Part shown: piece after piece, positions 1 to 29,429 of the stretch
Layout: each line of letters opens with the position of its first letter
How positions within the stretch are numbered: the first letter of the stretch is position 1
Assembly: GCA_002421785.1 (NCBI GenBank)
Contig: DIRZ01000003.1
Span: forward strand, 400,700 to 432,699
From: Candidatus Saccharimonadota bacterium
Lineage (GTDB): Bacteria > Patescibacteriota > Saccharimonadia > Saccharimonadales > Saccharimonadaceae
Length of the DNA stretch: 32,000 nt
Reading direction: 5' to 3'
Notes under the pieces: model-generated
Told to the model about the DNA's origin: nothing
What the model saw: only the letters and a program-made list of their open reading frames with translations
The model's database searches: none
Position numbers and translations under genes: made by a program

Positions 1-472
1 GAATAACCGAGTTCTGGCTAGGGATGACGGGAGTATTGACGTTATGAAGTGATACGTCGACCAAAAAACGATTTCGCAAAAAGCGCTTGCCAATGAGTAC
101 TGGGAAACGATTATTGGCACGGTTTGCCAGCGTAAACGATGCTCGGTATTTTTTGCCCGCAATGACCAACGCCAGTTTTACGCGGTATCGAAGCTCATCA
201 TCACCGAAGGAATTTTTGATTTTCGCCAGACGAAAACTACGCGTGGTAAATACTTTCCCGGTGTAGCAGGCTGAACCTGGCCCGAACAAGACGAAAGACA
301 GTTCGCCGTCCTGTTCGTTTACCTCTGTCGCCCATACACTCGACCCATCAGCGCCAGTGTCCACCTTTACCGGAACGGGCATATCACTGTTCTCGGGGAA
401 TACAGCAAACTCGGTCGTTCCGATGACGCCGTAGGTCGCTTGGTTCTTATCTGACGATATGACCGTTTTCAT
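1..472 (-). CDS. Retropepsin-like aspartic peptidase domain protein (PF05618 'putative ATP-dependent zinc protease' / RimB-like); 3' end cut by the window edge
   Basis: Absent from the ORF track because it runs off the window. Hand translation from ATG 472..470 gives MKTVISSDKNQATYGVIGTTEFAVFPENSDMPVPVKVDTGADGSSVWATEVNEQDGELSFVLFGPGSACYTGKVFTTRSFRLAKIKNSFGDDELRYRVKLALVIAGKKYRASFTLANRANNRFPVLIGKRFLRNRFLVDV..., open to base 1. The D-T-G-A signature and overall pattern match the PF05618 family from memory. A consensus promoter lies directly upstream. Confidence 0.6.
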   Translation of the reverse strand, partial: MKTVISSDKNQATYGVIGTTEFAVFPENSDMPVPVKVDTGADGSSVWATEVNEQDGELSFVLFGPGSACYTGKVFTTRSFRLAKIKNSFGDDELRYRVKLALVIAGKKYRASFTLANRANNRFPVLIGKRFLRNRFLVDVSLHNVNTPVIPSQNSVI

Positions 473-479
473 TCTTTAT

Positions 480-508
480 ATTATAGCAAATCATTACCAT
501 TTTGTCAA
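480..508 (-). promoter_or_regulatory. Consensus sigma70-type promoter (TTGACA-17-TATAAT) ending 7 nt before the ATG at 472
   Basis: Minus strand reads TTGACA (508..503), aaatggtaatgatttgc, TATAAT (485..480), ataaaga, ATG (472..470). The 7-nt gap has no room for a Shine-Dalgarno. Confidence 0.7.
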
Positions 509-519
509 TATGTCCCACC

Positions 520-1974
520 TCAGGCAGCAACCGCTTGTTGTTTAGCAATTATCCGCTTAGCAAAGTAGAGCTCCTGGGGGTTAGTATGGTCAATATTGCC
601 AATATGACTATCGTCCATCGCTTCGCTCAACCTATCGTCGGCAATTGCCTGCCGATAATACGCAGCATCCTTCATTATCCCTTCGTAATACACCTTGAGT
701 TTGCTATAAATAACACCCGGCATCGCCCAGTTTGTGCCACGAAACGCGTTGTCATCGTGGACGGTCGCTTCCTTTTTTGCGCGTGCTTCAACTGCTTCGG
801 TAATAAACCCATCTTCTGCATACTTAACGGCGAGTAGGCGCCACATCATTTCATAGGTTTGCCGGCCGTCCTTGGGCTGGCCATCCGCACCAAGCGCTAG
901 TCCTGCAACGATATACCGGTCGCGTGCGCGATTAATTGATGGATTTTCCATCGTGCCAGCCTCCGCACACTCGTATAGTACCCCATCGCCCTCCTCAACA
1001 TCCGCGCTTTTCGCTGTACCGTACTTTAACAGCCGCACACCCGTGGCTTCACCTTTGACGCTTCGGTCAGCATGAACACCACGCTCATGCAGGTAGAGCC
1101 GACGTAATTCTGCGGCGTTGCGACGGGTTGTAGCGGGCAGGTAAATTCTCTTTTTTGCGACATGCGTAGACACAATGCTGATTTCATGCGAGACTTCAAA
1201 TTTCCACTTGCCCCCATCAAAACCGTCAGCATTGATGGCGCGGTTCATTATGTCTGCACACTGCGTTGCGTCGTAATACACATCATCAGGCGTATCGGGG
1301 AATTCCTCTAGTTCTTTGCCAAATCTGCGATGAAGTTCTTTCTGGATAGCAATGAGCTCACTGTTAGTCAGCAGCTCGGCCTCTTCGCCTTGAAATTCGT
1401 GCATATCAAAATAGCGGAGCAGCTGTTGCTGGATATTACGCGTACGTTCGTCTGCCGGTATAAAATTCGCGACACGCCGCGATTCTGTTGCCATCATCGC
1501 ACCAAATACCGCCTCGTCAATCTCGCCATAAATCTCATGATTGAGCTGCATAAATTCTTGACGAGCGGTCTGAACTGCTTGGGAATTCCCCGCTTCACGA
1601 AGTCGCTTTGCAGCCTCAACCAACATCATTTTTTTTAGTCGCATCTCATGACCACCTGCATAGAATTCATATTCTTCATCAGATATCACCCCAGACCCTT
1701 TATTTGCCTCGAGTTCGAGAATCGCCTCGTAGGTATCGCGCTTTCTTTCTGCAAATGTCGTTTTGCCCTCGACTGTATCGTAAAGTCGATCGAGCTTAGG
1801 GTACAAATAATCAGGCTCGTACGCCGAGCCATGGATAAAAGCTCTTTGGCTCTCAGCACGCCTGGCGGTGGAATCCTGGAAATACGGATAGTCCGTGAAG
1901 CCACTTTTCACATCGACATATGCTTGGATTTCTGGTGCTGATTTTTGTGTTTGCATAATGCTTACGCCTAGCAT
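520..1974 (-). CDS. DUF1704 / MATCAP-like metallocarboxypeptidase-family protein (atypical HExxxH)
   Basis: 484-aa ORF. HERGVH is encoded at 1089..1072, followed about 25 aa later by VEEGDGVLYE, which I take as the counterpart of the QEGLA-type motif of DUF1704/TIGR02421 as I recall it. An alternative in-frame start is MQTQ at 1956. Confidence 0.6.
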   Translation of the reverse strand: MLGVSIMQTQKSAPEIQAYVDVKSGFTDYPYFQDSTARRAESQRAFIHGSAYEPDYLYPKLDRLYDTVEGKTTFAERKRDTYEAILELEANKGSGVISDEEYEFYAGGHEMRLKKMMLVEAAKRLREAGNSQAVQTARQEFMQLNHEIYGEIDEAVFGAMMATESRRVANFIPADERTRNIQQQLLRYFDMHEFQGEEAELLTNSELIAIQKELHRRFGKELEEFPDTPDDVYYDATQCADIMNRAINADGFDGGKWKFEVSHEISIVSTHVAKKRIYLPATTRRNAAELRRLYLHERGVHADRSVKGEATGVRLLKYGTAKSADVEEGDGVLYECAEAGTMENPSINRARDRYIVAGLALGADGQPKDGRQTYEMMWRLLAVKYAEDGFITEAVEARAKKEATVHDDNAFRGTNWAMPGVIYSKLKVYYEGIMKDAAYYRQAIADDRLSEAMDDSHIGNIDHTNPQELYFAKRIIAKQQAVAA

Positions 1975-2033: not shown

Positions 2034-5000
2034 CTAGGATATGGGCGGTGGGGTGTGCTTTTTGTCCGACTTAATAATCACATAAACCACTGCGCCAATG
2101 ACGATTAAGCCAATGGCAATCGTGAGTAGCGAGGTGTAGCCTTTGAGCATATAAAGCACCGCCAATGTCACACCCGCCGCACCCCACCACGTTGCAACAC
2201 GGTAGGCATAAACAAGTCCGGCAATCACAATCAAAACGTGCTCGATGAGGAACAGCAGCTGTGGGCCGCCGCCTTCAGAGAGTGCCGCATTCAGCGTTGG
2301 AAGACTGAGTAGCAGCAGGCCAATAATCAGCCGAACCTTTGCTTTAGGCCGCGTGCGAAGTGCGAGGTATGCGTAGGCAACTGCAAAAGCGGCGAAGGCC
2401 CAGAGATGCGTATACACAAGATGATGCATGTCGGGGAAGTACACGCCAATCATTCGCTGGAATCCAACCATACCGATAATCACACCAAGATCGACGAGTC
2501 GCAGCCGACGATACTCTCTGTCGTCATAACAGATTACCGAACCGATAGCCAGGAGCGCTATGCCTGCCGCCAGCACATCAGTCTGACTGCTTGAAAACAG
2601 AGCAAACATACCTGCGATTGTGGTTGTCAAGATTGCAGACAAGAACATAATATCCCAAACCGCCGCGTCATTGCGCCACGATCGGTAAACCCGCCCGCCG
2701 ACATAGAAGGCGCCCAGCCCCACCCATGCAATACAGACGGCCGTCTGCGTAAATGTAAGGCTGGCCCACGTGCCAACAAGCCCAGTTAAAATAATCGCTG
2801 CAAGGTTGGCGCCGTAAAGTAATTGACGATTCCCCGTGCGATACGTCGCGTGGTAGAGTGCCACCGCAGCCGCAAGCCATGCGACCGTTCGCCACATTGC
2901 ATCGTACTCACCAGCACTAAAATCAGAAAACAGTGTAAGCACACCAAACGTCACTGCGGTGAGCATGCCCGTCTGCCATGTAGCGGATAGTGCGGACCAC
3001 ATACGCCCACTCGAACGCCACCACTCACTGACGCCCACGAAGCCGATAAATGCCAGCCAGCCGATAAATGCGGTTGTTTCGGGCCACGTGAATTGAAGCA
3101 TTGCCGCAATCAGCCATAGCTCAACGACCGTTGCAATGTGCCCGAATGTTAGCGACACAACCGAGCGCGCTCGCCACGCAACGTAGTACAGTATGCCCAC
3201 GAGCGCCAACCAAGCTGCTGCTTTCAGGTTTGCTGCATCCACTGCGACGAGCGCAAACAGCGCGAGCGTCGTACCGATGATGATTCCGCCAATTTGAAGC
3301 AATTTACTGATATCGCCCCCTCGCTCACCATGCCTTCGTGCATACTCCCCGCCGCCAATCATCATCAACGCGTTAACCGCCGTCAATACGATAATCGTCG
3401 TATTGGTCGCCCAGTGATAATGTTGTCCCAAACTAGCAAGCACTGCGAGCACTGCCGCGTTGCCAAAAACAATCATTATGTCCACGCGCTCGCGAATCAC
3501 GATAAAGTAACAGGTTGCAGCAAGGATAATCCACCAGGCTGCACCCCACAGGCCACCAAGTAGCGGCGCCATTACTCCCATTATCATCAGCCAAACGCCG
3601 ACATATGAATATATGACCGCAGCCTCACCCACGTGGCCGGGGCGCATAACACGGACTCCAAACAGTGCGATGAGCATCAGGACATAGGTGATGAATAGCT
3701 GCTGGGTTTCAATGACAGGGCTGGCGACAAACTTACCAACCAGAAGCGGCAATACTGTCAGGCCTAGCAGAAGCGGTATCCCAAACTCGAATCGCCGTAG
3801 ACGAATTAAGGCATACATCGCCACTAGTACGATTGCGACGTATTCAACAGTCATAATAAACGCATTCCCAGGATTCGTAACATCTAGTACCATGCCCGTT
3901 GCCAAAAGCGCGACGCCGAAACCTATCCACTGCATAATTTCGTGATGACTATCGCCAGCCCGCAAGCGGGGCGCAAGGAAAGCAGTCGACGATACCGCAT
4001 TCACGAGGCCTGCAGCAGCAAGTGCATAGCTCATCATCACCCAGGAGTTGTCGGTGAGTGCCGCAACGAATGATACCGCCGCGATAATCATAATACAGCG
4101 TGCAACAACCCAGTACGTGGTTCGTAATGCAGTAGTACTCGCAATGACTGCCTGCGCCACATAATACAGCGCAGCGACACTAAATACAGCCGCATATTCA
4201 CCGGCTGTCATTGTCCAAAATGAAAATACCGCTCCGGTCAAAGCTACAGGTACGGCCACAGGGCTGGTTTTGACGATTGGCTCTGCAAATTCCTGGGGTA
4301 TCCACGCGTATTTATAGTGCGCCAAAAGCGTCAGGAACGAACCGAACGCGATCATCACCACGTAATACCACATAATCTGCGCATGGCCGACTGCTGGCAG
4401 TGTGCACGAGAAGATAAAAAGCGATAAGATGGACACATACGCAAGCAGCTGGCTTTTCATAGCCATGGTCGCGTGAATATACATAGCAGATCCAATGAGT
4501 GACGTCACGAGCCAACAGGTTGCAGCGTCTTTAGTGACAAGGTAATACATCGTGATGCCAGCGATTGGCACCGCTGCAAGCGCCGTGCCAATAAAAGCAA
4601 CTGCGGCAGGCTTAAGAATTGGCACGTGCCGATTGATGACAAAGCCAGCCACATAGAATACGAATATCATGAGCCAAACGATGGCGAACTTCACCCCATT
4701 GCCAAGGCCGATGGTTTGTGCGAGCAGAATAATACCCGACACCAGCAATAGACTCGCCACATACAACGCAATGTTGATGGTGTGACTTCGGTTTCGCTCA
4801 CGGCGCTCATCGTTCGTAATGGCAGTAGGGGCGAACGGCTGGCCAATATAGGTAGTATCGGCATTTGGACTGTCAAGTGTCGTCACATACCCATAGGGAC
4901 TCATTTGTAATGGGACATCAACATAATTGAGGGATGGGTCGGCTACCGCGGCTTCTGCCGGTGCGGCATAGTCCCCTGCTGCATATGTCGCAGGCATGGC

Positions 5001-5201
5001 AGGCTCAGGACTAATCGCAGGCTCTGGCTTAGGAGGCTCGGGTGAAATACCGTGCTTCTGCTCAGTCGCCCTTACGCCATCCCAGTAGCCCTGCCGGTAC
5101 GATATGCTGTAATAATCCAGCGTATCAGGCTGCTTGCCACTACGCGATACTAGCGCAATTACCAGTACGATAACCACAATAAATAGCAAAAATTCTAACA
5201 C
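2034..5201 (-). CDS. Very large polytopic integral membrane protein (1055 aa, about 30 hydrophobic segments), function unknown
   Basis: Uninterrupted 3.2-kb ORF with a GTG start, AAGGGG 9 nt upstream and a TATAAT at 5222..5217. It has an N-terminal TM helix, a Pro/Glu-rich linker (SPEPPKPEPAISPEPAMP), then continuous hydrophobic helices. G-E-Y motifs recur (TAGEYAAVF, GGGEYARRH, SAGEYDAMW). Confidence 0.8.
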   Translation of the reverse strand: MLEFLLFIVVIVLVIALVSRSGKQPDTLDYYSISYRQGYWDGVRATEQKHGISPEPPKPEPAISPEPAMPATYAAGDYAAPAEAAVADPSLNYVDVPLQMSPYGYVTTLDSPNADTTYIGQPFAPTAITNDERRERNRSHTINIALYVASLLLVSGIILLAQTIGLGNGVKFAIVWLMIFVFYVAGFVINRHVPILKPAAVAFIGTALAAVPIAGITMYYLVTKDAATCWLVTSLIGSAMYIHATMAMKSQLLAYVSILSLFIFSCTLPAVGHAQIMWYYVVMIAFGSFLTLLAHYKYAWIPQEFAEPIVKTSPVAVPVALTGAVFSFWTMTAGEYAAVFSVAALYYVAQAVIASTTALRTTYWVVARCIMIIAAVSFVAALTDNSWVMMSYALAAAGLVNAVSSTAFLAPRLRAGDSHHEIMQWIGFGVALLATGMVLDVTNPGNAFIMTVEYVAIVLVAMYALIRLRRFEFGIPLLLGLTVLPLLVGKFVASPVIETQQLFITYVLMLIALFGVRVMRPGHVGEAAVIYSYVGVWLMIMGVMAPLLGGLWGAAWWIILAATCYFIVIRERVDIMIVFGNAAVLAVLASLGQHYHWATNTTIIVLTAVNALMMIGGGEYARRHGERGGDISKLLQIGGIIIGTTLALFALVAVDAANLKAAAWLALVGILYYVAWRARSVVSLTFGHIATVVELWLIAAMLQFTWPETTAFIGWLAFIGFVGVSEWWRSSGRMWSALSATWQTGMLTAVTFGVLTLFSDFSAGEYDAMWRTVAWLAAAVALYHATYRTGNRQLLYGANLAAIILTGLVGTWASLTFTQTAVCIAWVGLGAFYVGGRVYRSWRNDAAVWDIMFLSAILTTTIAGMFALFSSSQTDVLAAGIALLAIGSVICYDDREYRRLRLVDLGVIIGMVGFQRMIGVYFPDMHHLVYTHLWAFAAFAVAYAYLALRTRPKAKVRLIIGLLLLSLPTLNAALSEGGGPQLLFLIEHVLIVIAGLVYAYRVATWWGAAGVTLAVLYMLKGYTSLLTIAIGLIVIGAVVYVIIKSDKKHTPPPIS

Positions 5202-5260
5202 CCCTGGTCACCCCTTATTATAGCCATAATGGTTATAGTATATCAGTTATGAAGGAGTTT

Positions 5261-6367
5261 TTATGAAAACAGGCTATGCTTTTTTGCAGAATCAAACTGC
5301 TCGAGTAAATCACGCTGTTTTTTACTCAATTTAGTGGGTGTGTCCACTACAATACTCACAATGTGTGCACCGCGCGCTTCGCCGCGTAAATGCGGTACGC
5401 CATGGCCACTCAGCTTAAAGTCAGTGCCGCTTTGTGTACCCGCGGGAACCTTCATCGTCACTGTACCATCAACGGTCTCGACATCAATTTCCGTCCCGAG
5501 TGCCGCTGCAACCATATCAACATGCTCTTCGCTGAGCACTAAGTAACCTTCACGCGTAAACTTCTTGTGGGCTTTGACCCGTATATGAACGTACAAATCG
5601 CCCTTGGCTCCGCCGCCGATTGCCTCGCCGCGCTCACGCAAGCGAATCGTCGCGCCATCATCGATGCCGGCGGGTATTTTAACCGTCACACTCACCGTCC
5701 GGCGCTCCGTTCCCTTGCCGCGACACACACTGCACACAACTTCTGGCACTTTGCCTTTGCCTTTACAGGTTTCGCAGGTTACAGCCTGTTGAATTTGTCC
5801 GAACATCGTATTCATCAGTCGCACCTGTTGTCCGGCACCCTTACAGGCCTCACACGTCTTTAAGCTATGGCCTGGTTCGACTGTTGTCCCATGGCAGTGG
5901 CTACACTCGTCGTCCAAATTCATAGACAGCTTTTCTTCTTTTCCAAATACCGCCTCTTCAAATGTCAGGGTGACGCTCGTCTCTACGTCACGGCCCCTCG
6001 TGGGGCCGTAGGGCTGTTGGGCCCCGCCGCCAAAGAACTGGCTAAAGATATCTCCAAAGCCGCCCGCGCCATTGAAGTCAAAGTGAACGTCTTGCCCGTT
6101 GAAGTTAAAGCCTTCGAACGGATTGCCACCCGCACCACCACCGGCGCCACCGCCCACACCCGCGTGACCAAACTGATCATAACGCTGGCGTTTTTGCTGG
6201 TCTTTCAAGACCTCATAGGCCTCGTTGATTTCCTTGAACTTAGCTTCATCGCCACCCTCTTTGTCAGGGTGGTGTTTCACGGCAGCTTTGCGAAACGCCT
6301 TCTTAATTTCATCTGCACTGGCTGTTTTTGACACACCAAGCACTTCGTAATAATCACGTTTAGTCAT
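5261..6367 (-). CDS. dnaJ: Molecular chaperone DnaJ (Hsp40)
   Basis: J domain with HPD (KHHPDKEGG), a Gly-rich linker, four CxxCxGxG zinc-finger repeats ([32 protein letters not shown]) and a C-terminal substrate-binding region. Confidence 0.97.
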
Positions 6368-6388: not shown

Positions 6389-6415
6389 CTAGCACTCGAA
6401 ATACAAGAGTGCTAA
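6389..6415. promoter_or_regulatory. CIRCE operator (HrcA binding site) upstream of dnaJ
   Basis: CTAGCACTC-N9-GAGTGCTAA, one mismatch to the consensus TTAGCACTC-N9-GAGTGCTAA. It lies between the dnaJ start (6367) and the stop of the upstream gene (6417). On the minus strand a TATACT follows it, 10 nt before the ATG. Confidence 0.85.
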
Positions 6416-8516: not shown

Positions 8517-9293
8517 ATGGACGCGCCAACGCCTCATCAGCCTCACGGGCAGCCACATATACCTACCGCAGTCGTGCCCGCCCCTTATACCGATAGCTAC
8601 GGTATTGCGAGCATCGTCCTAGCGCTATTCGCGTTCACCATTCCGGGCCTTGTCGTCGGCCTAATTGGCGCGAGCAAAGCCAAACGCATGCGTGTTTCTC
8701 CAGCCGTCTCGCGCGTGGGCTGGATACTAAACCTCGTCTTCCTAGTCATCTCTACCGTCATTCTTATTGCCGTCATTGCGTTCGTCGTTTCACATCCCGA
8801 AGAAATCAAGTCTGAGCTCTCATCGCTCAAAGATGCCTCCCGAACAACTGTTGCAGCCGGGGGTGCACGACTACTGGTGCCTATTTCTTTCGAGTCTATC
8901 GCAGAAGATTACCCTGACGCCGATATTGCCCAGGGTGATTTATTTAGCGAAGCCTATGTCATTACGTACCGTGAGTCGAGCGCTGACATTGCATCAAACA
9001 CAACAGTGAGTGACCACGCAAACCTGTCGTATCAGCAATTTATAGCTGACCCCGGATATAGCGAACAGTCCCGCACGCAGCTTACTGCCGGGAAGGTGGC
9101 CAATCCTTACGGCTACGAAATTGCTGACTATCGTATTGACGCAACCTATGAAGGACACAAGTATGTCTACGTCATACGTTATGTACGAACCGCCCAAAGC
9201 TATTACACAGTAATGAGCTGGACCATGCCAAGCCACCTTGACGACAACCAGACAACGCTCTACAACATCTTGGGGTCTTTCCAGGAACTATAG
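8517..9293 (+). CDS. Membrane protein with a DUF4190-like two-helix N-terminus and an extracytoplasmic C-terminal domain
   Basis: The ATG is 2 nt after the FKBP stop. It has a Pro/His-rich N-terminus, two hydrophobic helices (IASIVLALFAFTIPGLVVGLIGA and GWILNLVFLVISTVILIAVIAFVV), then a soluble domain of about 150 aa with no motif I recognise. Confidence 0.7.
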   Translation: MDAPTPHQPHGQPHIPTAVVPAPYTDSYGIASIVLALFAFTIPGLVVGLIGASKAKRMRVSPAVSRVGWILNLVFLVISTVILIAVIAFVVSHPEEIKSELSSLKDASRTTVAAGGARLLVPISFESIAEDYPDADIAQGDLFSEAYVITYRESSADIASNTTVSDHANLSYQQFIADPGYSEQSRTQLTAGKVANPYGYEIADYRIDATYEGHKYVYVIRYVRTAQSYYTVMSWTMPSHLDDNQTTLYNILGSFQEL

Positions 9294-9330
9294 TCCGCGT
9301 CTTATTGTGGTAATGTTTTACCCAGCGCGC

Positions 9331-9336
9331 TATACT
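9331..9336 (+). promoter_or_regulatory. -10 box TATACT 7 nt upstream of ATG 9344
   Basis: gcgcTATACT agctgca ATG; no SD. Confidence 0.5.
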
Positions 9337-9343
9337 AGCTGCA

Positions 9344-10441
9344 ATGGAACCCTTCTTTCGTACTACTGGCGTCATACTCGGTACACTTCGTGCCGAGTAT
9401 CGCCAACTCGCAAATCGCTACTTTGGTACCGTGGAACGCCTACCTGGCGACGCGCGAGCCATTTGTCAGCAAACGGTTGATCGACTTTGGGAAGGTGATT
9501 TCTATCGAACCAGTCTGGGGCACTTTGATTTCTTTTGGATGCGAGATTTTGGCACCGTCGCACAATCTCTCGTGCGGCTAGGCGAAACAAAGCGCGTCCA
9601 CCACACTCTGCAATTTGCCCTTCGTCACTATCGACGGGCAGGTGCGGTCACACTATGTATCGACTCGGTCGGCAACTGTTTTGATGCTCCGGGCAAAAGC
9701 ATTGATGCGCTCCCATGGCTGCTTCACAGCCTTCATGTCAGCGGCTACGAACTCAACAAGTCAGACATAACGTTCCTACACAGGGAGCTTCGTCGCTACC
9801 GGAAAAAGTATCTCGACGATAATGGCCACATACGAAGTATGAAGTATGCCGAGATGCGTGACGCCGTGATACACGACCGTAGCGCCTACTCCGTGGCACT
9901 GGTGGCGCGGCTGGCCTACTGTAGCGAGCAACTCCAGCTTGAATTTCCTTACAAAATGAGCCAATACCGTGAAAAGTTAATAGCTCATTACTGGAACGGA
10001 CACTACTTTAATGCAGCCTATCGAAACACCGCATTTAGCGCCGAGTGCGCGCTCTTCCCGTTTTTCCTGGGCATCGTGGATGACGCAACAATGGCCGGCC
10101 AAACATTCGATTACATTAATCAGCAGCGTCTCAATGAGCCCTACCCACTCATTTACACCAACACGCCAGAAAAGTTTCGCTACAACTGGTGGATGACCGG
10201 ACCTTGGATGCCAAATTATCAAGGAGATACCATATGGAGCTGGCACGGGGAATACTACCTCCATTTACTCAAGCGATACAAGCGCCCTGAATACAAGCGA
10301 GAGTATAAAAAATTCTCTGAAATGATTGAATTACACGGAAGTTTTCCAGAAATGCTTAACCTCGATGGAAGCTGGTATAACGCACCAGTATACAAGGGCG
10401 ATCCTGGCATGGTCTGGGCAGCATTATTTCTGGAGCTCTAG
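9344..10441 (+). CDS. Six-hairpin (alpha/alpha)6 glycoside-hydrolase-like protein (GDE_C/GH63/GH125-like), paralog of 14451..15920
   Basis: 365-aa ORF. It has FDFFWMRDFG near the N-terminus and YQGDTIWSWHGEYYLHLL...GSFPEMLNLDGS near the C-terminus. These motifs resemble six-hairpin glycosidases; the family was not resolved by eye. Confidence 0.5.
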   Translation: MEPFFRTTGVILGTLRAEYRQLANRYFGTVERLPGDARAICQQTVDRLWEGDFYRTSLGHFDFFWMRDFGTVAQSLVRLGETKRVHHTLQFALRHYRRAGAVTLCIDSVGNCFDAPGKSIDALPWLLHSLHVSGYELNKSDITFLHRELRRYRKKYLDDNGHIRSMKYAEMRDAVIHDRSAYSVALVARLAYCSEQLQLEFPYKMSQYREKLIAHYWNGHYFNAAYRNTAFSAECALFPFFLGIVDDATMAGQTFDYINQQRLNEPYPLIYTNTPEKFRYNWWMTGPWMPNYQGDTIWSWHGEYYLHLLKRYKRPEYKREYKKFSEMIELHGSFPEMLNLDGSWYNAPVYKGDPGMVWAALFLEL

Positions 10442-14323: not shown

Positions 14324-14350
14324 TTAGCACTCCTCGCAGGATAGTGCCAA
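14324..14350. promoter_or_regulatory. Second, imperfect CIRCE element in the dnaK 5' leader
   Basis: TTAGCACTC-N9-TAGTGCCAA: the left arm is perfect and the right arm has 2 mismatches. Confidence 0.6.
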
Positions 14351-14360
14351 ATCTGTTTCT

Positions 14361-14389
14361 ATGATAGGTGATTAGCACTCTCATGTCAA
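14361..14389 (-). promoter_or_regulatory. dnaK promoter (TTGACA-17-TATCAT) interlocked with CIRCE
   Basis: On the minus strand TTGACA (14389..14384) lies inside the 9-nt spacer of the perfect CIRCE. TATCAT (14366..14361) follows after 17 nt. Confidence 0.7.
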
Positions 14390-14398
14390 GAGTGCTAA
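14372..14398. promoter_or_regulatory. Perfect CIRCE operator upstream of dnaK
   Basis: TTAGCACTC-tcatgtcaa-GAGTGCTAA, an exact match to the consensus inverted repeat. Confidence 0.92.
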
Positions 14399-14450: not shown

Positions 14451-15920
14451 ATGCACTTTATTTATAGTCTTATAGGGATTATCGGCTTTGCTTCCCTTAT
14501 GGCAGTACTCACCAACCCCTTTAGCCGTCTCACTATTGTTCGTCGTCCTTATATTTCCGAGATGAAGCAAGATGCCATTGAAGCAGTCAACAACAACCAT
14601 AAACTTATCGTACGCAGTAGCCTCCCGTATCGACTATTCGGTATCTTCAAGAACGGTTTTCATATTATCGCCAGCCGCTATACTCGTCGTCCGCATGCAG
14701 ATAACGCCGAGACCGTTGATGAGATCATCAATCAAATCTATCATCTTCGATTTGATCCAAAAAAGCTACTCCTGACTTCAGGAGATCATTTTAGCTCACT
14801 TTTCGTCCGGAACCTCGGCGTTTTTTACTACCCCACGCTTGACACGCAGCTTGCCACTACCGAACAGCACTGGCATAATCGACAGCTCGTTTACCTACAA
14901 ACACTTGCCTATGCACTCGGCGTTTTTGACAAAACAACCGATCTCGCCACCACTATTGTGCCGACTGGCCGGTGGCAAGCAACGTGCGTCGACTTCCATT
15001 CCTATCCTTCTGACACCCTCTACGGGATGCTCTACGCACTTGCCGCACTAATGGGCAAAGAATCTGCTCGCCCTGCCAGCTACAACCGCGATGTCTGGAA
15101 ACTTAGTACCGTCGATGCTGCTAAGTTGTTGCGCAAAACGTACGCGGGGAGCCTGGCCCGCCACTACCAGCGCTACCGTGAACGAGCTTTCGATGAGACA
15201 TTGGGACTCATTAACCCCTCGGTGACAATGTCCGGAGCAAAAGACATTACCAAACGCCAGTCCTCGTTCTACGACAATGTCGTGTTCTGGAAAACAACAC
15301 AGCTCGCCATGGACTTAGGAATCGTCAAAAGCGACTCAGGCTTCCTGGCCGCGCTCAAAGAGCGCATCATCACAACATTTTGGCTAGAAGATGAAGGATA
15401 TTTCCTTGAAGACCTCTCAGCAGCAGGCAAACAACATAAATACTACTCATCTGATTGGCTTATCGTGCTCGCAACACATTTTCTTGATCCAGAAGACAGC
15501 ATAGAGCGAGACTATTTTGAACGTTCGATCGCCTATATTCGTAAGCAAAAAATCGCTAAACCTTTTGCGATAAAATACCAGCACGAAACGCGCGCCCACC
15601 GTCAATTTGCTATCGTACGCCTTGCCGTCGCTAGCTATGGCGGCGACTCCATTTGGAGTTTCTGGGGAATGGAATACATCAAGACGCTGATACTCCTCTA
15701 CCGTGCGACGAATAACAACAACTACCTCGAAGAAGCAGACTACCACATAGACAAGTACGAGCACGCCATGAAACGAGATCGGGGGTTCCCGGAAGTTTAT
15801 GATGCTAAAGGAGCGCTACTTCAAACGCCGCTCTACCGCAGCATCCGAATGACGGGCTGGGTAATCGGGTTTGATCAAGTGCGCGCCATGCGTCGCGCAA
15901 TCACTAGCAGCGAAGACTAA
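14451..15920 (+). CDS. Six-hairpin glycoside-hydrolase-like protein with an N-terminal membrane anchor; paralog of 9344..10441
   Basis: 489 aa. The N-terminal hydrophobic segment is IYSLIGIIGFASLMAVL. SGDHFSSLFVRNLG and YGGDSIWSFWGMEYIKTLILL...RGFPEVYDAKGA align by eye with the motifs of the 9344 protein. Confidence 0.5.
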   Translation: MHFIYSLIGIIGFASLMAVLTNPFSRLTIVRRPYISEMKQDAIEAVNNNHKLIVRSSLPYRLFGIFKNGFHIIASRYTRRPHADNAETVDEIINQIYHLRFDPKKLLLTSGDHFSSLFVRNLGVFYYPTLDTQLATTEQHWHNRQLVYLQTLAYALGVFDKTTDLATTIVPTGRWQATCVDFHSYPSDTLYGMLYALAALMGKESARPASYNRDVWKLSTVDAAKLLRKTYAGSLARHYQRYRERAFDETLGLINPSVTMSGAKDITKRQSSFYDNVVFWKTTQLAMDLGIVKSDSGFLAALKERIITTFWLEDEGYFLEDLSAAGKQHKYYSSDWLIVLATHFLDPEDSIERDYFERSIAYIRKQKIAKPFAIKYQHETRAHRQFAIVRLAVASYGGDSIWSFWGMEYIKTLILLYRATNNNNYLEEADYHIDKYEHAMKRDRGFPEVYDAKGALLQTPLYRSIRMTGWVIGFDQVRAMRRAITSSED

Positions 15921-17118: not shown

Positions 17119-17145
17119 CTAGCACTCAAGCAATACGAGTGCTAG
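17119..17145. promoter_or_regulatory. CIRCE operator upstream of hrcA-grpE
   Basis: CTAGCACTC-N9-GAGTGCTAG (the outermost base of each arm differs from consensus). The right arm contains the stop codon (17142..17144) of the upstream gene. Confidence 0.8.
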
Positions 17146-24301: not shown

Positions 24302-25579
24302 CTAGAGGTACCGAGTACTGCCAAACGGAATCTTCTGCTTCACATACACGCCCGTTCCCAAGGTGTCGGCACTATGAATCGTCCGATTGCCGTAGCGCTG
24401 GTTAATCTCATCAAGCGCCGTCGTCACCTGCTGCTCACGAACCAGCTCATTACCAAACAGCGAAAGCTGATTACCCATATCATCAGTCAAATGGTAGCAG
24501 TGAACCCCAATCTCACGAATACCACCCGGGGGTACATGAGCAAACAACCGACGCGCGATTGCCCAAATGGCCGCATCGCTATAAAAGGGCAGGGGAGCCA
24601 GATATTTTTCGTGCCAATAATTCCCCTTGCGTCCCCATCGCCCATTACTTGCACTTCCCTCGGCGTCACCGTACAGGCGAACGTAGATGCCGACGCCTCG
24701 AGCGCACTTTTGCTGCGAACGCAGCTTACTACCCACCGATTCCACCAAATGGTGCAGGCGCTGCGATACCTGCGCTCGGGTCAGCTGACGGCTCTCCAGC
24801 ACATACTGTCGCCCACAGGTTTTCAAGTCATATACCACATCGTCGACTTCCCAACCCCGCAGCCGCTGGTGCCACTGGTCACCACAGATGCTTTTGAATA
24901 CTACGGTGCGAAGGGAATACGCGTCCGCATCCAGGAACTGTAGCGGCGTCATGATACCTACCTGCGTAAGGCGATGTTCGTTGCGGCTCGCGATACCCGT
25001 CAGGTCTTGCAGCTTAAGCCGGCCCAGTACCTCGCGTAAATTAGTGTGGTCAATCACATTGAGTCCGTCTGGTTTGTTCAAGCCTGCTGCGGTTTTTGCC
25101 AAAAATCGATTTGGTGCGATGCCAATGTTGCAGCGCATGGCACAACCAATTTCGGTGCGCAGCCGATGCTTAATCTCCTGTGCCACTTCTACCATGTCCC
25201 GGTCACGAATCGCCGCCGAACTTTGGGCAAAATCAATCACTCCTTCGTCGATGCTTTTCATCGTGAAACTAGGGGAGTAGTCCCGCATAATCTCCATGAG
25301 CTTGTGGTACACATAGCGGTATTTTGGCGGATCGCTTTCCAGCCCCACTAGCTGCGGACACAGCCGCTTCGCTTCCTTAAAGCTCATCCCTAGCCTTACG
25401 CCCATCGCCTTGGCTTCATAACTACACGTAATAATCATGGTATGTTCAGTGCGCCGATTTAAAATCGCCACCGGCCGGTCGCGCAGCATGGGCCGGGCCT
25501 GCTGCTCTACTGTTGCAAAGCAGCTATTCAGGTCAATGTGCATCACCAGTGGGCGAGTGGGGTTGTAGTCTTCCCTCAT
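24302..25579 (-). CDS. Y-family DNA polymerase (DinB/UmuC-type translesion polymerase)
   Basis: MHIDLNSCFATVEQ (catalytic Asp motif), SIDEG (catalytic D-E); at 425 aa its length is UmuC-like. Confidence 0.9.
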   Translation of the reverse strand: MREDYNPTRPLVMHIDLNSCFATVEQQARPMLRDRPVAILNRRTEHTMIITCSYEAKAMGVRLGMSFKEAKRLCPQLVGLESDPPKYRYVYHKLMEIMRDYSPSFTMKSIDEGVIDFAQSSAAIRDRDMVEVAQEIKHRLRTEIGCAMRCNIGIAPNRFLAKTAAGLNKPDGLNVIDHTNLREVLGRLKLQDLTGIASRNEHRLTQVGIMTPLQFLDADAYSLRTVVFKSICGDQWHQRLRGWEVDDVVYDLKTCGRQYVLESRQLTRAQVSQRLHHLVESVGSKLRSQQKCARGVGIYVRLYGDAEGSASNGRWGRKGNYWHEKYLAPLPFYSDAAIWAIARRLFAHVPPGGIREIGVHCYHLTDDMGNQLSLFGNELVREQQVTTALDEINQRYGNRTIHSADTLGTGVYVKQKIPFGSTRYL

Positions 25580-25839
25580 ACCCTATCCGCCTCGAGCGTC
25601 AGCAACCAGGTGAGTCGCTCGCTATCAAATTCCAACCGGTAGTCCGCCCCGCCATCTGTCACATCAAACATGTGGACCATGCGTCGGCCAGCAGTAGTAG
25701 GGTGGCACAGCCCAATTTCGGTAATGTCGACTTCCCTGCCGCTGGCGCGCCTAAATTTCACTGGTTTACACGGGTTCAGCCCCTCGCTAAACACCGCGAC
25801 TACTTCAACCCGTTCGTTTAAAAAAAGTTCATCATTCAT
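25576..25839 (-). CDS. Small protein of unknown function (87 aa), translationally coupled to the Y-family polymerase
   Basis: MNDELFLNERVEVVAVFSEGLNPCKPVKFRRASGREVDITEIGLCHPTTAGRRMVHMFDVTDGGADYRLEFDSERLTWLLTLEADRV. Its stop overlaps the polymerase start (ATGA at 25576..25579). The track ORF uses an upstream TTG (25917); the ATG at 25839 is preferred. Confidence 0.6.
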   Translation of the reverse strand: MNDELFLNERVEVVAVFSEGLNPCKPVKFRRASGREVDITEIGLCHPTTAGRRMVHMFDVTDGGADYRLEFDSERLTWLLTLEADRV

Positions 25840-26019
25840 TTCAAAATATCCCCAACTAAGTATTAGAGAAACGGTTGATTGAAATGTGTTGCCCGTCCCC
25901 TTGCCCGTTTCTAGCAATTCGTCCGTAAAACAACTGATGATCCACTAGCGAGGGACGCTTGCTCGCGAGGCGAGTAGTGAGTATCACTGGGAGTTATGTA
26001 TAGTATATACCAATGCGCG

Positions 26020-26683: not shown

Positions 26684-26760
26684 GGCACCGTAGCTCAGCT
26701 GGTTAGAGCGCAGGACTCATAAGCCTGAGGTCACAAGTTCAATCCTTGTCGGTGCTACCA
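26684..26760 (+). tRNA. tRNA with CAU anticodon (elongator Met type; lysidine-modified Ile2 not excluded), CCA encoded
   Basis: Hand-folded cloverleaf: acceptor GGCACCG/CGGTGCT (G1-U72 wobble), D arm GCTC-AGCTGGTTA-GAGC, anticodon arm CAGGA-CTCATAA-GCCTG (A31-G39 mismatch), variable loop AGGTC, T arm ACAAG-TTCAATC-CTTGT, A73, CCA. It lacks initiator features (no 1:72 mismatch, no GGG/CCC in the anticodon stem). Confidence 0.92.
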
Positions 26761-26768
26761 CGAAAGAA

Positions 26769-26791
26769 CCCCACCTAGCGTGGGGCTTTTT
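26769..26791. terminator. Bidirectional rho-independent terminator between the tRNA and the convergent metallopeptidase gene
   Basis: CCCCAC-ctagc-GTGGGG followed by CTTTTT on the plus strand and TTCTTT on the minus strand. The loop contains the stop codon (26775..26777) of the minus-strand gene. Confidence 0.8.
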
Positions 26792-27866
26792 CGTGGCTTG
26801 GGGTACGATTGCGGCGCACTAGCCACCAAATTAGCAGACAAATCCCGACAAGCACACTACTCCCCACTACGAACACCATGAATAACACCACCAGTCCCAC
26901 GAGCAATGTGGGCAGGCCGTCGTCAGGCACCTCTTGGCCTGGATTATCAGGCACCACGGTGCTTTGGGGTTCGGGCGCCAACTCTGCCTGCGCAACGCCG
27001 GAATGAATTTTCGCAAAATATTCATCATCCATTTGTGGCACCACGGCGCGAATCACCTGTTTGTAATACGCCAGTTTGTTGGCAAGTATCACATCGGTTT
27101 TTGCCCACTCTGCAAGCTGGGCGTACCCAGCAGTCGTAAACATGTAGCCGTATAGCTCGGCTTTGTCCTCCTCCATCCCAGAGGTAGCATAGCCCGTGAC
27201 AAACCCAGGCGTCGGGTGCACGCCCGTCAGGCAGGTATTCCCCTCCTCATAACACGTTCCGCCGCCGCCGCCATAGCTAAACTCTGCAGGATTAAGCGCG
27301 GCCCAGCGAGCGTCGTGGTGATACACGTCACCGTAGTACGACGCTTCAAAATAATGAGCATACTCATGGTGAATCACGTGTCGCATATAGGCTTCATCGT
27401 AACTATACGAAATATCATAAATCATGGCGCGCAAGTAGTTCATGGGAGCGGCGGCTCGTGCCTGCGACGTGCCGTTATAGCGGTACTCATACTTGTTTAT
27501 CAGGTTAATCGTTTGCAGGTCTGTTGCCCTGGTCCACTCTGGTGGATACTTGGCCCACTCTTCTACAAACATCACCGCCATGCGCTTATACGTCGGCAGG
27601 TCACCCGGCACAATACTTTGGCAGGTAAACGCGGCGTCCTGCATGCACGTCGTCGTGAGTTTCAGCGAATATTGGTCAAGCAACGACTGTACGCTGCTCG
27701 TGACTTCCTGTACGGTAGTCGCCTGGTTGATACCAGCGGTCAACTGCTGGACATCTGCCAACCGATAAATCGGCGGCGTCGACATAGCCAACGCGGGCAT
27801 CGTAAAACCAGCTAGGCAGCATAACGCCGATAGGAACAAACCAGTGAAGCCACGATAAAACTGCAT
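26775..27866 (-). CDS. Secreted, C-terminally membrane-anchored putative zinc metallopeptidase (HExxH ... EDxAE; Peptidase_Mx1-like)
   Basis: Signal peptide MQFYRGFTGLFLSALCCLAGFTMPALA; VIHHEYAHYFE (HExxH); GFVTGYATSGMEEDKAELYGYMF; Pro-rich linker; C-terminal TM LLVGLVVLFMVFVVGSSVLVGICLLIWWLV followed by RRNR. Confidence 0.55.
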   Translation of the reverse strand: MQFYRGFTGLFLSALCCLAGFTMPALAMSTPPIYRLADVQQLTAGINQATTVQEVTSSVQSLLDQYSLKLTTTCMQDAAFTCQSIVPGDLPTYKRMAVMFVEEWAKYPPEWTRATDLQTINLINKYEYRYNGTSQARAAAPMNYLRAMIYDISYSYDEAYMRHVIHHEYAHYFEASYYGDVYHHDARWAALNPAEFSYGGGGGTCYEEGNTCLTGVHPTPGFVTGYATSGMEEDKAELYGYMFTTAGYAQLAEWAKTDVILANKLAYYKQVIRAVVPQMDDEYFAKIHSGVAQAELAPEPQSTVVPDNPGQEVPDDGLPTLLVGLVVLFMVFVVGSSVLVGICLLIWWLVRRNRTPSHEKAPR

Positions 27867-27910: not shown

Positions 27911-28306
27911 CTACACGTCGCGGGCGCTATTGAGCGTAAAAAGCTTAGAAACACCCCAGCCAATCAACGCATACACGGCGACTGCAACGAGCGAGCTAAC
28001 TTCCAACACTGATTGCCCATAGGCGGGCTGGTAGCTAAAGATGCCATAGAATGGCCATGCGAATACACCGCTCAGGGCATATACGAAGCCGACGAACGCG
28101 TTGTTGTCGTTCGCACCGAGCAGCAGCAAGACCAGGCGCAGCACGAGCAGCACAATGATAAATCCGACGATGTACCACACCACGCGGCTGGCGACAACGC
28201 GACCATCAGCCTGAGTCGTCTGGGCAACCGTTTGTCGCTGAACATTCGTGGCGCCTTCTTGCACATTTGTTTCACGAACTTCAGTTGTTTGTCGTTCTTG
28301 GTCCAT
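27911..28306 (-). CDS. Small membrane protein, YggT-like (two or three TM segments after a Gln/Thr-rich N-terminus)
   Basis: RVVWYIVGFIIVLLVLRLVLLLLGAN...FVGFVYALSGVFAWPFYGIF...LEVSSLVAVAVYALIGWGV. This pattern matches proteins commonly annotated as YggT family (from memory). SD AGGAGA is 8 nt upstream. Confidence 0.5.
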   Translation of the reverse strand: MDQERQTTEVRETNVQEGATNVQRQTVAQTTQADGRVVASRVVWYIVGFIIVLLVLRLVLLLLGANDNNAFVGFVYALSGVFAWPFYGIFSYQPAYGQSVLEVSSLVAVAVYALIGWGVSKLFTLNSARDV

Positions 28307-28703: not shown

Positions 28704-29429
28704 ATGGACTACCCCACTATATTCGGGATTATCGGACTGGCCGCACTGATTCATGCCAGCTTTCAGCTGAGCATCAGCATGGTAACACTTCTCAGCGGCC
28801 ATAGCCTCGGCAGCAAAGCCAAGGCAAGCCGCGCGCTTCACTTAGCGGGCGCTTTTTTTGCTGGCGTCGTCGTCATGACCATGCTGTTCGTTTCGTTCCT
28901 GGCGTACCTTGCTACACAACTGTTCCCTCACTCCGTACCCGCGCTTGCATGGTCAGCAGTGGCAGGTATCTCCATCGGTCTCGGCGTCGCAGTGTGGGCA
29001 TTTTACTACCGCCGCACCAAAGTTGGAACGACCCTGTGGATACCACGGCCAATGGCCAGGTTCCTGAGTGAGCGCACGAAAGCCACGACGTTTGGCGCAG
29101 AAAGCTTCAGCCTTGGGCTGGTAAGCGTCATCGCCGAGGGAATCTTTATCATCGCGCCTGCCAGCGCGGCCGCACTTGCCCTCACCCAGCTGCCCGCCCC
29201 CCTGCAACTTGTAGGTATCGCCCTGTATACCGGTGTCGCGTCACTCGGCATCCTGGTGGTCATCATGCTCATTGGTGGCGGGCACAAGCTCAGCCGTATT
29301 CAAAAATGGCGCGAAGACAACAAACGATTCATGCAATTCGCTGCCGGAAGCGCCCTACTGGTGCTCGGGTTTTACATGTATGTCAATGAAGTAGTGGCAG
29401 CCGTGACTACTGTTACCGGGGGCCTATAG
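28704..29429 (+). CDS. Integral membrane protein (about 6 TM segments), function unknown
   Basis: 241-aa hydrophobic ORF. It vaguely resembles LysE/GAP-type small transporters, but I see no diagnostic motif. Its stop overlaps the next start (TAGTG). Confidence 0.7.
   Translation: MDYPTIFGIIGLAALIHASFQLSISMVTLLSGHSLGSKAKASRALHLAGAFFAGVVVMTMLFVSFLAYLATQLFPHSVPALAWSAVAGISIGLGVAVWAFYYRRTKVGTTLWIPRPMARFLSERTKATTFGAESFSLGLVSVIAEGIFIIAPASAAALALTQLPAPLQLVGIALYTGVASLGILVVIMLIGGGHKLSRIQKWREDNKRFMQFAAGSALLVLGFYMYVNEVVAAVTTVTGGL

Follow-up and report, generated by a model that had tools for sequence, protein, structure and literature searches.

What would a relative of the human tubulin-tail carboxypeptidase MATCAP do in a bacterium that has no tubulin? 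The question is raised by a stretch of 32,000 nucleotides from a Candidatus Saccharibacteria genome (contig DIRZ01000003.1, positions 400,700 to 432,699; the whole stretch is called the window below), whose left end holds the first gene of a peptide-tail cassette and part of the second. The order of the cassette is a MATCAP-like gene, a gene in which a RimB-like peptidase is fused to an ATP-grasp ligase and, beyond the window edge, a canonical RimK gene. Four putative catalytic domains are thus encoded together, a MATCAP-family metallocarboxypeptidase, a retropepsin-like endopeptidase, a divergent ATP-grasp ligase and RimK; their family identities were established by sequence comparison, and their motifs are intact. 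Gene context and knowledge of the families suggest that the MATCAP-like enzyme trims a ligase-built C-terminal tail. That it acts within a RimK/RimB system for writing and cutting such tails, to which it adds a carboxypeptidase, is a proposal that we regard as about evenly balanced.

Identical genes were found by exact-sequence look-up among public contigs on an 812,921-bp Candidatus Saccharibacteria contig, which is consistent with the reduced genome supposed in a first-pass annotation of the window, and near-identical proteins, annotated as hypothetical, are encoded by 'Saccharibacteria bacterium 32-50-10'. The MATCAP-like open reading frame (ORF) comprises 484 amino acids (Table 1). The representative of its sequence cluster starts six codons later (MQTQ..., window position 1956) and is identical over the shared 478 amino acids; position 1956 is the probable start, giving a protein of 478 amino acids. 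The protein matched PF08014 (MATCAP) with an E value of 1.7e-12 and 47.4 bits, the gathering cut-off being 27, and the match is confined to residues 206–337 (profile positions 90–220 of 365), the region that holds the motifs. The motif HERGVH is followed, 25 residues past its second histidine, by the start of VEEGDGVLYE, both being present as first described. Residues H290, E291, H295, E322 and G323 (numbered on the 478-amino-acid form; 6 is added for the 484-amino-acid ORF, on which the earlier numbering H296/E297/H301/E327/E328 is correct) are invariant in 21 aligned relatives and still so in 35 relatives that include a divergent subfamily, and the first glutamate of the EEG motif is nearly invariant in both sets.

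Human MATCAP1/TMCP1 and MATCAP2/TMCP2 (KIAA0895L and KIAA0895) belong to the same Pfam family. When a family profile of 35 sequences was searched against the PDB, the top two matches were human MATCAP (7z5g/7z5h, E 6e-7; 7z6s, E 2.7e-5), and three blocks were aligned: HExxxH with HEIGTH, EEGLG with EEGLA, and a downstream RG(x)T..KD..Y..G block, FRGT..KD.Y.G in the profile and KRGQTD..KDQVYLDG in MATCAP. Entry 7z6s reads HQIGTH where 7z5g reads HEIGTH. The HExxxH and EEG pair has been described for TMCP1 and TMCP2, and the E281A mutant of TMCP1 is inactive (PMC10499314). The relation is remote: a narrower profile of 21 sequences did not find MATCAP in the PDB even at E 10, the Pfam match covers about 130 residues, and some 200 helical residues at the N-terminus of the bacterial protein lie outside the Pfam MATCAP model. 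Membership of the predicted metallocarboxypeptidase in the MATCAP family is established by sequence and motifs.

Within the family, the proteobacterial 'QEGLA motif' proteins (TIGR02421) are likewise of the PF08014 type with HExxxH. The window's protein reached 40.8 bits on the TIGR02421 equivalog model, which has a cut-off of 338.65, and ten further Saccharibacteria relatives scored at most 56 bits; it therefore belongs to a subfamily other than the proteobacterial QEGLA equivalog group. The QEGLA motif of TIGR02421 presumably corresponds to EEGLG here, as judged from the TIGR02421 match and the description of that family. At E <= 0.001, 1882 cluster representatives of bacterial DUF1704/MATCAP relatives were retrieved, and a tblastn search of plasmids for annotated relatives gave no match. 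The MATCAP-like protein has no N-terminal hydrophobic segment of the kind that marks export.

The second gene runs off the window after 157 residues, which include VKVDTGADGSS (KVDTGA at residues 36–41) and matched the retropepsin-like family PF05618 with an E value of 2.2e-15 and 57.2 bits (gathering cut-off 27). On public contigs (L001/L003) the full gene encodes 455 amino acids, with PF05618 at residues 18–146 and a RimK-type ATP-grasp region at approximately 178–431, of which residues 291–431 matched PF08443. The DTGA motif is invariant in 17 fusion proteins and is shared by the RimB genes at 17 other loci, and the ATP-grasp core residues Lys298, Asp410, Glu424 and Asn426 are conserved in 17 relatives; given this conservation, both halves look catalytically competent. 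The peptidase domain scored 43.2 bits on the RimB equivalog model NF052261 (cut-off 200), about equal to its match to RloA3 (43.8 bits, cut-off 210), and the free RimB-like proteins of relatives scored 50–63 bits on the RimB model. The ligase domain scored 57.5–57.9 bits on the RimK family model TIGR00768, under the cut-off of 143.4, is approximately 23% identical to the adjoining RimK, and in the PDB matched D-Ala-D-Ala ligase (Ddl) and RimK equally weakly (E 4e-5 to 5e-4). Judged by these scores, the ligase half is a divergent ATP-grasp domain and not RimK itself. The fusion protein has 402 relatives and is common in Saccharimonadia.

The promoter before the fusion gene, earlier called perfect, does match the sigma-70 consensus at 12 of 12 positions (TTGACA-17-TATAAT, with a TG extension), is the only such site in the 6.5 kb scanned, and ends 7 nucleotides before the ATG. 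No Shine-Dalgarno sequence is evident before this ATG (window 473–508, minus strand), which together with the promoter distance suggests a leaderless or nearly leaderless mRNA.

The fusion gene is followed, with a 4-nucleotide ATGA overlap, by a gene for a canonical RimK of 303 amino acids (L003, 12849–13760). Its PDB matches were Pseudomonas RimK (7qyr, E 1.2e-97) and E. coli RimK (4iwx, E 6.2e-89), and it passed the NCBI S6:L-glutamate ligase equivalog NF007764 with 348.7 bits (cut-off 331). The cofactor glutamyl ligases MptN and CofF were weaker model matches, whose cut-offs were not passed. The first-pass annotation had placed a ligase just past the left edge, and what lies there is the fused ATP-grasp domain plus the separate RimK. 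It had also called the two genes in the window the trimming half of the system, which falls short in that the second gene, besides its RimB-like peptidase, also bears the divergent ligase. Its other predictions hold: both proteins lie over the gathering cut-offs of PF08014 and PF05618, the second gene is the retropepsin-like one, HExxxH and EEG are in register with HEIGTH and EEGLA of 7z5g, and ATP-grasp ligases are present.

Conservation of the arrangement was surveyed with one genome per species (GTDB), giving 21 loci, nearly all from Saccharibacteria, of which 19 were long enough to be judged. The genes dnaJ, MATCAP-like, RimB-like and RimK lie on one strand in this order in 17 of the 19, and in most relatives dnaJ immediately precedes the MATCAP-like gene. 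The RimB-like gene stands directly before RimK in all 17 rim-carrying loci. RimB is mostly a free protein of 140–180 amino acids; the form fused to the second ATP-grasp domain occurs in the window's lineage, L005, L013 and L015. The more divergent MATCAP-like subfamily, which is also represented on a human-oral metagenome contig, has the same gene order, and L032 has all parts of the cassette. The spacer from the MATCAP-like gene to RimB is short in 12 of the 17 loci. Very short spacers in several loci (1 nucleotide in L024, 9 in L025 and 11 in L013) add weight to functional adjacency. Identity across loci is 69–93% for RimK, 47–80% for DnaJ, 30–52% for the MATCAP-like protein and 24–62% for the RimB domain, so that RimK conservation matches or exceeds that of DnaJ and is far above that of the peptidase neighbours (L004–L033). 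The constant core is RimK with the RimB-like domain; the MATCAP-like gene and the second ligase often join it, and both are present in the window's lineage. The earlier view that retention of the pair suggests its importance is borne out for RimK and the RimB domain and less so for the MATCAP-like gene, which is missing from four related loci, stands alone in two, and is dispensable at the locus.

Several features vary around these genes. Insertions of 0.8–3.2 kb lie between the MATCAP-like gene and RimB in L014 (8431–11690), L016 (8404–11474), L023 (8305–9817) and L007 (8370–9213). Other MATCAP-like copies are a divergent, partial one upstream of the main copy in L005 (1617–2357), a second one adjoining ABC-transporter genes in the L016 genome (L021, 7004–8377), and one between rpsG and an alpha-amylase gene (L022, 6974–8332). 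RimK is followed by a DUF192 gene in L025 (8727–9188), L027 (8988–9440), L029 (8237–8683) and L030 (8187–8657), and in the window's lineage directly by a gene for a 160-amino-acid membrane protein, with no DUF192 gene. In L030 the opposite strand carries, immediately upstream of the fusion gene, a gene for a GGDEF protein (diguanylate cyclase; 4990–5721, minus strand); Pseudomonas RimK is controlled by cyclic-di-GMP.

A close characterized system is the Pseudomonas RimK/RimB (RimABK) system of S6 glutamylation, in which canonical RimK likewise comes right after a PF05618 retropepsin-like peptidase with DTGA. The Saccharibacteria locus differs from it in four respects: the gene for RimA, an EAL-domain protein, was not seen; the peptidase domain is far below the RimB equivalog cut-off; this domain is fused to an extra ATP-grasp domain; and a MATCAP-like gene precedes RimB, no such carboxypeptidase being mentioned in the Rim literature searched. 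Endopeptidase activity of RimB on poly-glutamate tails is known only for Pseudomonas RimB and for the RimBK hybrid of Desulfotalea psychrophila, DP2392 (PMC11957791). The hybrid shares with the fusion protein a polypeptide of an N-terminal RimB-like and a C-terminal RimK-type ATP-grasp part, but is set apart by its description: in the Saccharibacteria fusion the ATP-grasp half is not RimK, and a full RimK gene always follows. The combination of rimBK with an extra rimK is found in only 0.9% of rim-carrying genomes (PMC11957791).

On the human side, MATCAP/TMCP enzymes are processive C-terminal carboxypeptidases that shorten acidic C-terminal tails residue by residue; deglutamylation is attributed to the family in the title and abstract of PMC10499314. 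In the bacterium, unlike the human setting, tubulin is absent and the partner ligases are of the RimK type. The tubulin tails that human MATCAP trims are built or rebuilt by the ATP-grasp ligases TTL and TTLL.

From these families a course of events may be proposed. RimK would extend a protein C-terminus by alpha-linked glutamates, perhaps with help or priming from the second ATP-grasp domain, and may also make free poly-alpha-glutamate; because RimK passes the S6 ligase equivalog cut-off, ribosomal protein S6 is the most probable target. The RimB domain would cut long glutamate runs internally, and the MATCAP-like enzyme would take residues one by one off the C-terminus. RimB is an endopeptidase that needs 5–6 contiguous glutamates (PMC11957791), and shorter tails would therefore escape it. 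An enzyme trimming from the end would explain how tails shorter than these approximately 5–6 glutamates are removed, and we infer that an exopeptidase clears the short tails that RimB leaves. Trimming by the MATCAP-like enzyme could thus finish short tails that RimB cannot cut, or it could degrade released oligo-glutamate or expose an acceptor glutamate. The substrate, direction and specificity of each step, including action of the MATCAP-like enzyme on a RimK-made tail, are what we infer from gene context and the families.

Independent support comes from another phylum. The gammaproteobacterium Photobacterium damselae has a QEGLA/DUF1704 gene that shares a 17-nucleotide overlap with an ATP-grasp gene annotated as glutathione synthase, and at low salinity the two are induced 27- and 38-fold and RimK 52-fold (PMC10308900). 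The QEGLA protein there has 660 amino acids, and its partner is annotated as an ATP-grasp enzyme of the glutathione-synthase type, not RimK. Beside the short spacers to RimB, this pair and the fit of the enzymology add weight to a functional adjacency.

A number of observations weigh against a tail-trimming role within the RimK/RimB system. No rpsF was found in the window or in any fetched locus when S6 of E. coli and of B. subtilis was used as the tblastn query, and no ORF of at least 60 amino acids in the window and fetched loci ends in EE or an acidic tail, so that no candidate substrate was found nearby. Structural comparison did not lead back to MATCAP: AlphaFold2 models were confident, with pLDDT (predicted local distance difference test) values of 92.5 (whole protein) and 91.9 (core), and in Foldseek searches with them MATCAP was not among the matches, none of which was significant. 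The best were M32 carboxypeptidases and other zinc peptidases, that of the full-length model being the M32 enzyme 5giv (E 0.048, template modelling score 0.33). The M32 (Taq-type) metallocarboxypeptidases are carboxypeptidases of about 500 amino acids with HExxH, not HExxxH, and no sequence similarity to the MATCAP-like protein; the match is too weak to show common descent. In several relatives the spacer from dnaJ to the MATCAP-like gene contains promoter-like sequences, and with these spacers and the consensus promoter before the fusion gene, co-transcription is not established. In L029, L030, L031 and L033, dnaJ is followed straight by the fusion gene and RimK with no MATCAP-like gene there, while in L021 and L022 the MATCAP-like gene occurs without rim genes nearby. 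Finally, the region from dnaJ to comEC is syntenic throughout Saccharibacteria, and adjacency alone is therefore weak evidence.

Synteny is the basis of the alternative that survives best, which we consider somewhat unlikely: the MATCAP-like protein would be a general cytoplasmic carboxypeptidase, serving for example peptide salvage in an amino-acid auxotroph, and would lie beside the rim genes by virtue of a gene order frozen in Saccharibacteria. On this account it would be one more member of a neighbourhood whose synteny also takes in dnaJ, comEC and the gene for a small membrane protein; the rim loci that lack it, the copies alone by rpsG and the amylase gene or by ABC-transporter genes, its own promoter-like spacers and its much faster divergence than RimK would all be as expected, and the M32 enzymes among the weak best structural matches are of broad specificity. 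The Photobacterium overlap and co-induction argue against it, since that organism lies outside Saccharibacteria and its DUF1704/ATP-grasp link is therefore not due to Saccharibacteria synteny. So do the very short spacers to RimB, and so does the action of characterized family members on protein C-terminal tails.

Distinctly unlikely, in our estimate, is a free polymer or small molecule as the object of the cassette, with RimK making free poly-alpha-glutamate or attaching a glutamyl tail to a metabolite, and with the peptidases setting its length or recycling glutamate. A passage of PMC11957791 describes the making of free poly-alpha-L-glutamate by RimK and its stimulation by RimB, the RimK family includes the cofactor ligases MptN and CofF, and no neighbouring gene product has an acidic C-terminus; on the other side, RimK here passes the S6 ligase cut-off and not those of the cofactor ligases, and the known substrates of the MATCAP family and of RimB are protein tails. 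Most improbable is a cap-and-uncap cycle parallel to tubulin tyrosination and detyrosination, in which the second ATP-grasp ligase would add a non-glutamate residue to the tail or to a native C-terminus and the MATCAP-like enzyme remove it: the cassette does hold two clearly different ATP-grasp ligases, the core residues of the second are conserved and MATCAP was first characterized as a remover of terminal tyrosine (PMC10499314), but the idea is weakened because the two do not travel together: in most loci with a MATCAP-like gene RimB is free and a second ligase is absent, and of the loci with the second ligase four have no MATCAP-like gene.

Trimming of RimK-built tails by the MATCAP-like enzyme, the reading preferred here, can be extended to a wider one that we consider rather unlikely, namely that the cassette is a ribosome-directed forerunner of the tubulin tail code. 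RimK and the second ligase would write a tail on S6, the retropepsin-like and MATCAP-family enzymes would erase it, trimming of RimK-type tails would have been the original task of MATCAP, and eukaryotes would have inherited the pairing of ligase and peptidase.

The cassette adjoins heat-shock genes that carry HrcA/CIRCE (controlling inverted repeat of chaperone expression) operators. Four CIRCE repeats with 0–2 mismatches were found in the window, 0.01 being expected by chance: one upstream of dnaJ (Table 1), two upstream of dnaK (14324–14350 and 14372–14398) and one upstream of hrcA-grpE (17119–17145). CIRCE is found approximately 20–50 nucleotides upstream of dnaJ in 14 loci (the window's contig and 13 relatives), and read-through could bring the genes that follow dnaJ, the MATCAP-like gene among them, under heat-shock control. 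A single heat-shock operon of dnaJ and the cassette was considered; the conservation of CIRCE speaks for it and the promoter-like sequences between the genes against it. The 1055-amino-acid membrane protein encoded between dnaJ and the MATCAP-like gene matched nothing in Pfam, even at E 10. Relatives are encoded at this position in L019 and L024, and L005 has a partial one there; in L027 (an oral lineage) the place is taken by the gene for an unannotated protein of about this size, and in L032 by a larger unannotated gene that overlaps the MATCAP-like start by 17 nucleotides. As a fifth component of the cassette this protein was rejected, being absent from most loci and having no recognisable domain.

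Table 1. Coordinates of the cassette and its upstream neighbours in the window
Feature	Positions	Strand	Basis
MATCAP/DUF1704-family metallocarboxypeptidase-like gene	520..1974	-	PF08014, family profile match to 7z5g
HERGVH (HExxxH), predicted two His metal ligands and catalytic Glu	1072..1089	-	Conservation, MATCAP alignment
EEG motif, predicted third metal ligand	988..996	-	Conservation, MATCAP alignment
Consensus sigma-70-type promoter	480..508	-	12/12 consensus match only
Fusion gene, first 157 codons of 455 amino acids: RimB-like retropepsin domain	1..472	-	PF05618
DTGA catalytic aspartate motif, retropepsin-like domain	350..361	-	Invariant in 17 fusion proteins
1055-amino-acid membrane protein, family unassigned, context	2034..5201	-	Directly upstream of MATCAP-like gene, same strand
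dnaJ, context	5261..6367	-	DnaJ Pfam domains
CIRCE/HrcA operator upstream of dnaJ	6389..6415	-	1 mismatch

Elsewhere in the window lie housekeeping genes, namely dnaK, grpE, hrcA, lepA, murJ, ftsH, maf and those for a guanylate kinase, a PP-loop ATPase, a Y-family DNA polymerase, a pyridine-nucleotide disulphide oxidoreductase and a pilin-like protein. A 363-amino-acid protein (26775–27866, minus strand) resembles the putative zinc metallopeptidase families Peptidase_Mx1 and SprT-like weakly, its matches lying below the cut-offs; its gene adjoins that for tRNA-Met (26684–26760), the single tRNA gene in the window. Sizeable ORFs without a Pfam match lie at 8517–10441, 14451–15920, 25576–25917, 27911–28306 and 28704–29429.

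Several parts of this picture are already known, namely RimK, RimB and the RimB-RimK hybrid (PMC11957791) and MATCAP/TMCP in animals (PMC10499314). In the literature searched, no experimental function was found for bacterial DUF1704 proteins, no paper connects DUF1704 or MATCAP to RimK or to ATP-grasp, or treats RimK in Saccharibacteria, and no RimB fusion is described in which a paralogue coexisting with RimK forms the ligase half. The comparative genomics of Iyer et al. 2009 may have noted a link between DUF1704 and ATP-grasp ligases. The locus suggests, rather than proves, a first function for the bacterial relatives of MATCAP: a MATCAP-like gene beside RimB and RimK across the phylum yields a concrete hypothesis for bacterial DUF1704, with the S6 tail as the likely substrate. 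As a whole it is a clear, testable lead and not a first-order surprise. If true, it would link the eukaryotic family of tubulin detyrosinases and deglutamylases to a prokaryotic ligase-peptidase cassette. For the organisms themselves, the high identity of RimK relative to DnaJ across genomes of approximately 0.8–1 Mb suggests that tail modification is important to these ultra-small bacteria, which depend on hosts and include human-oral lineages.

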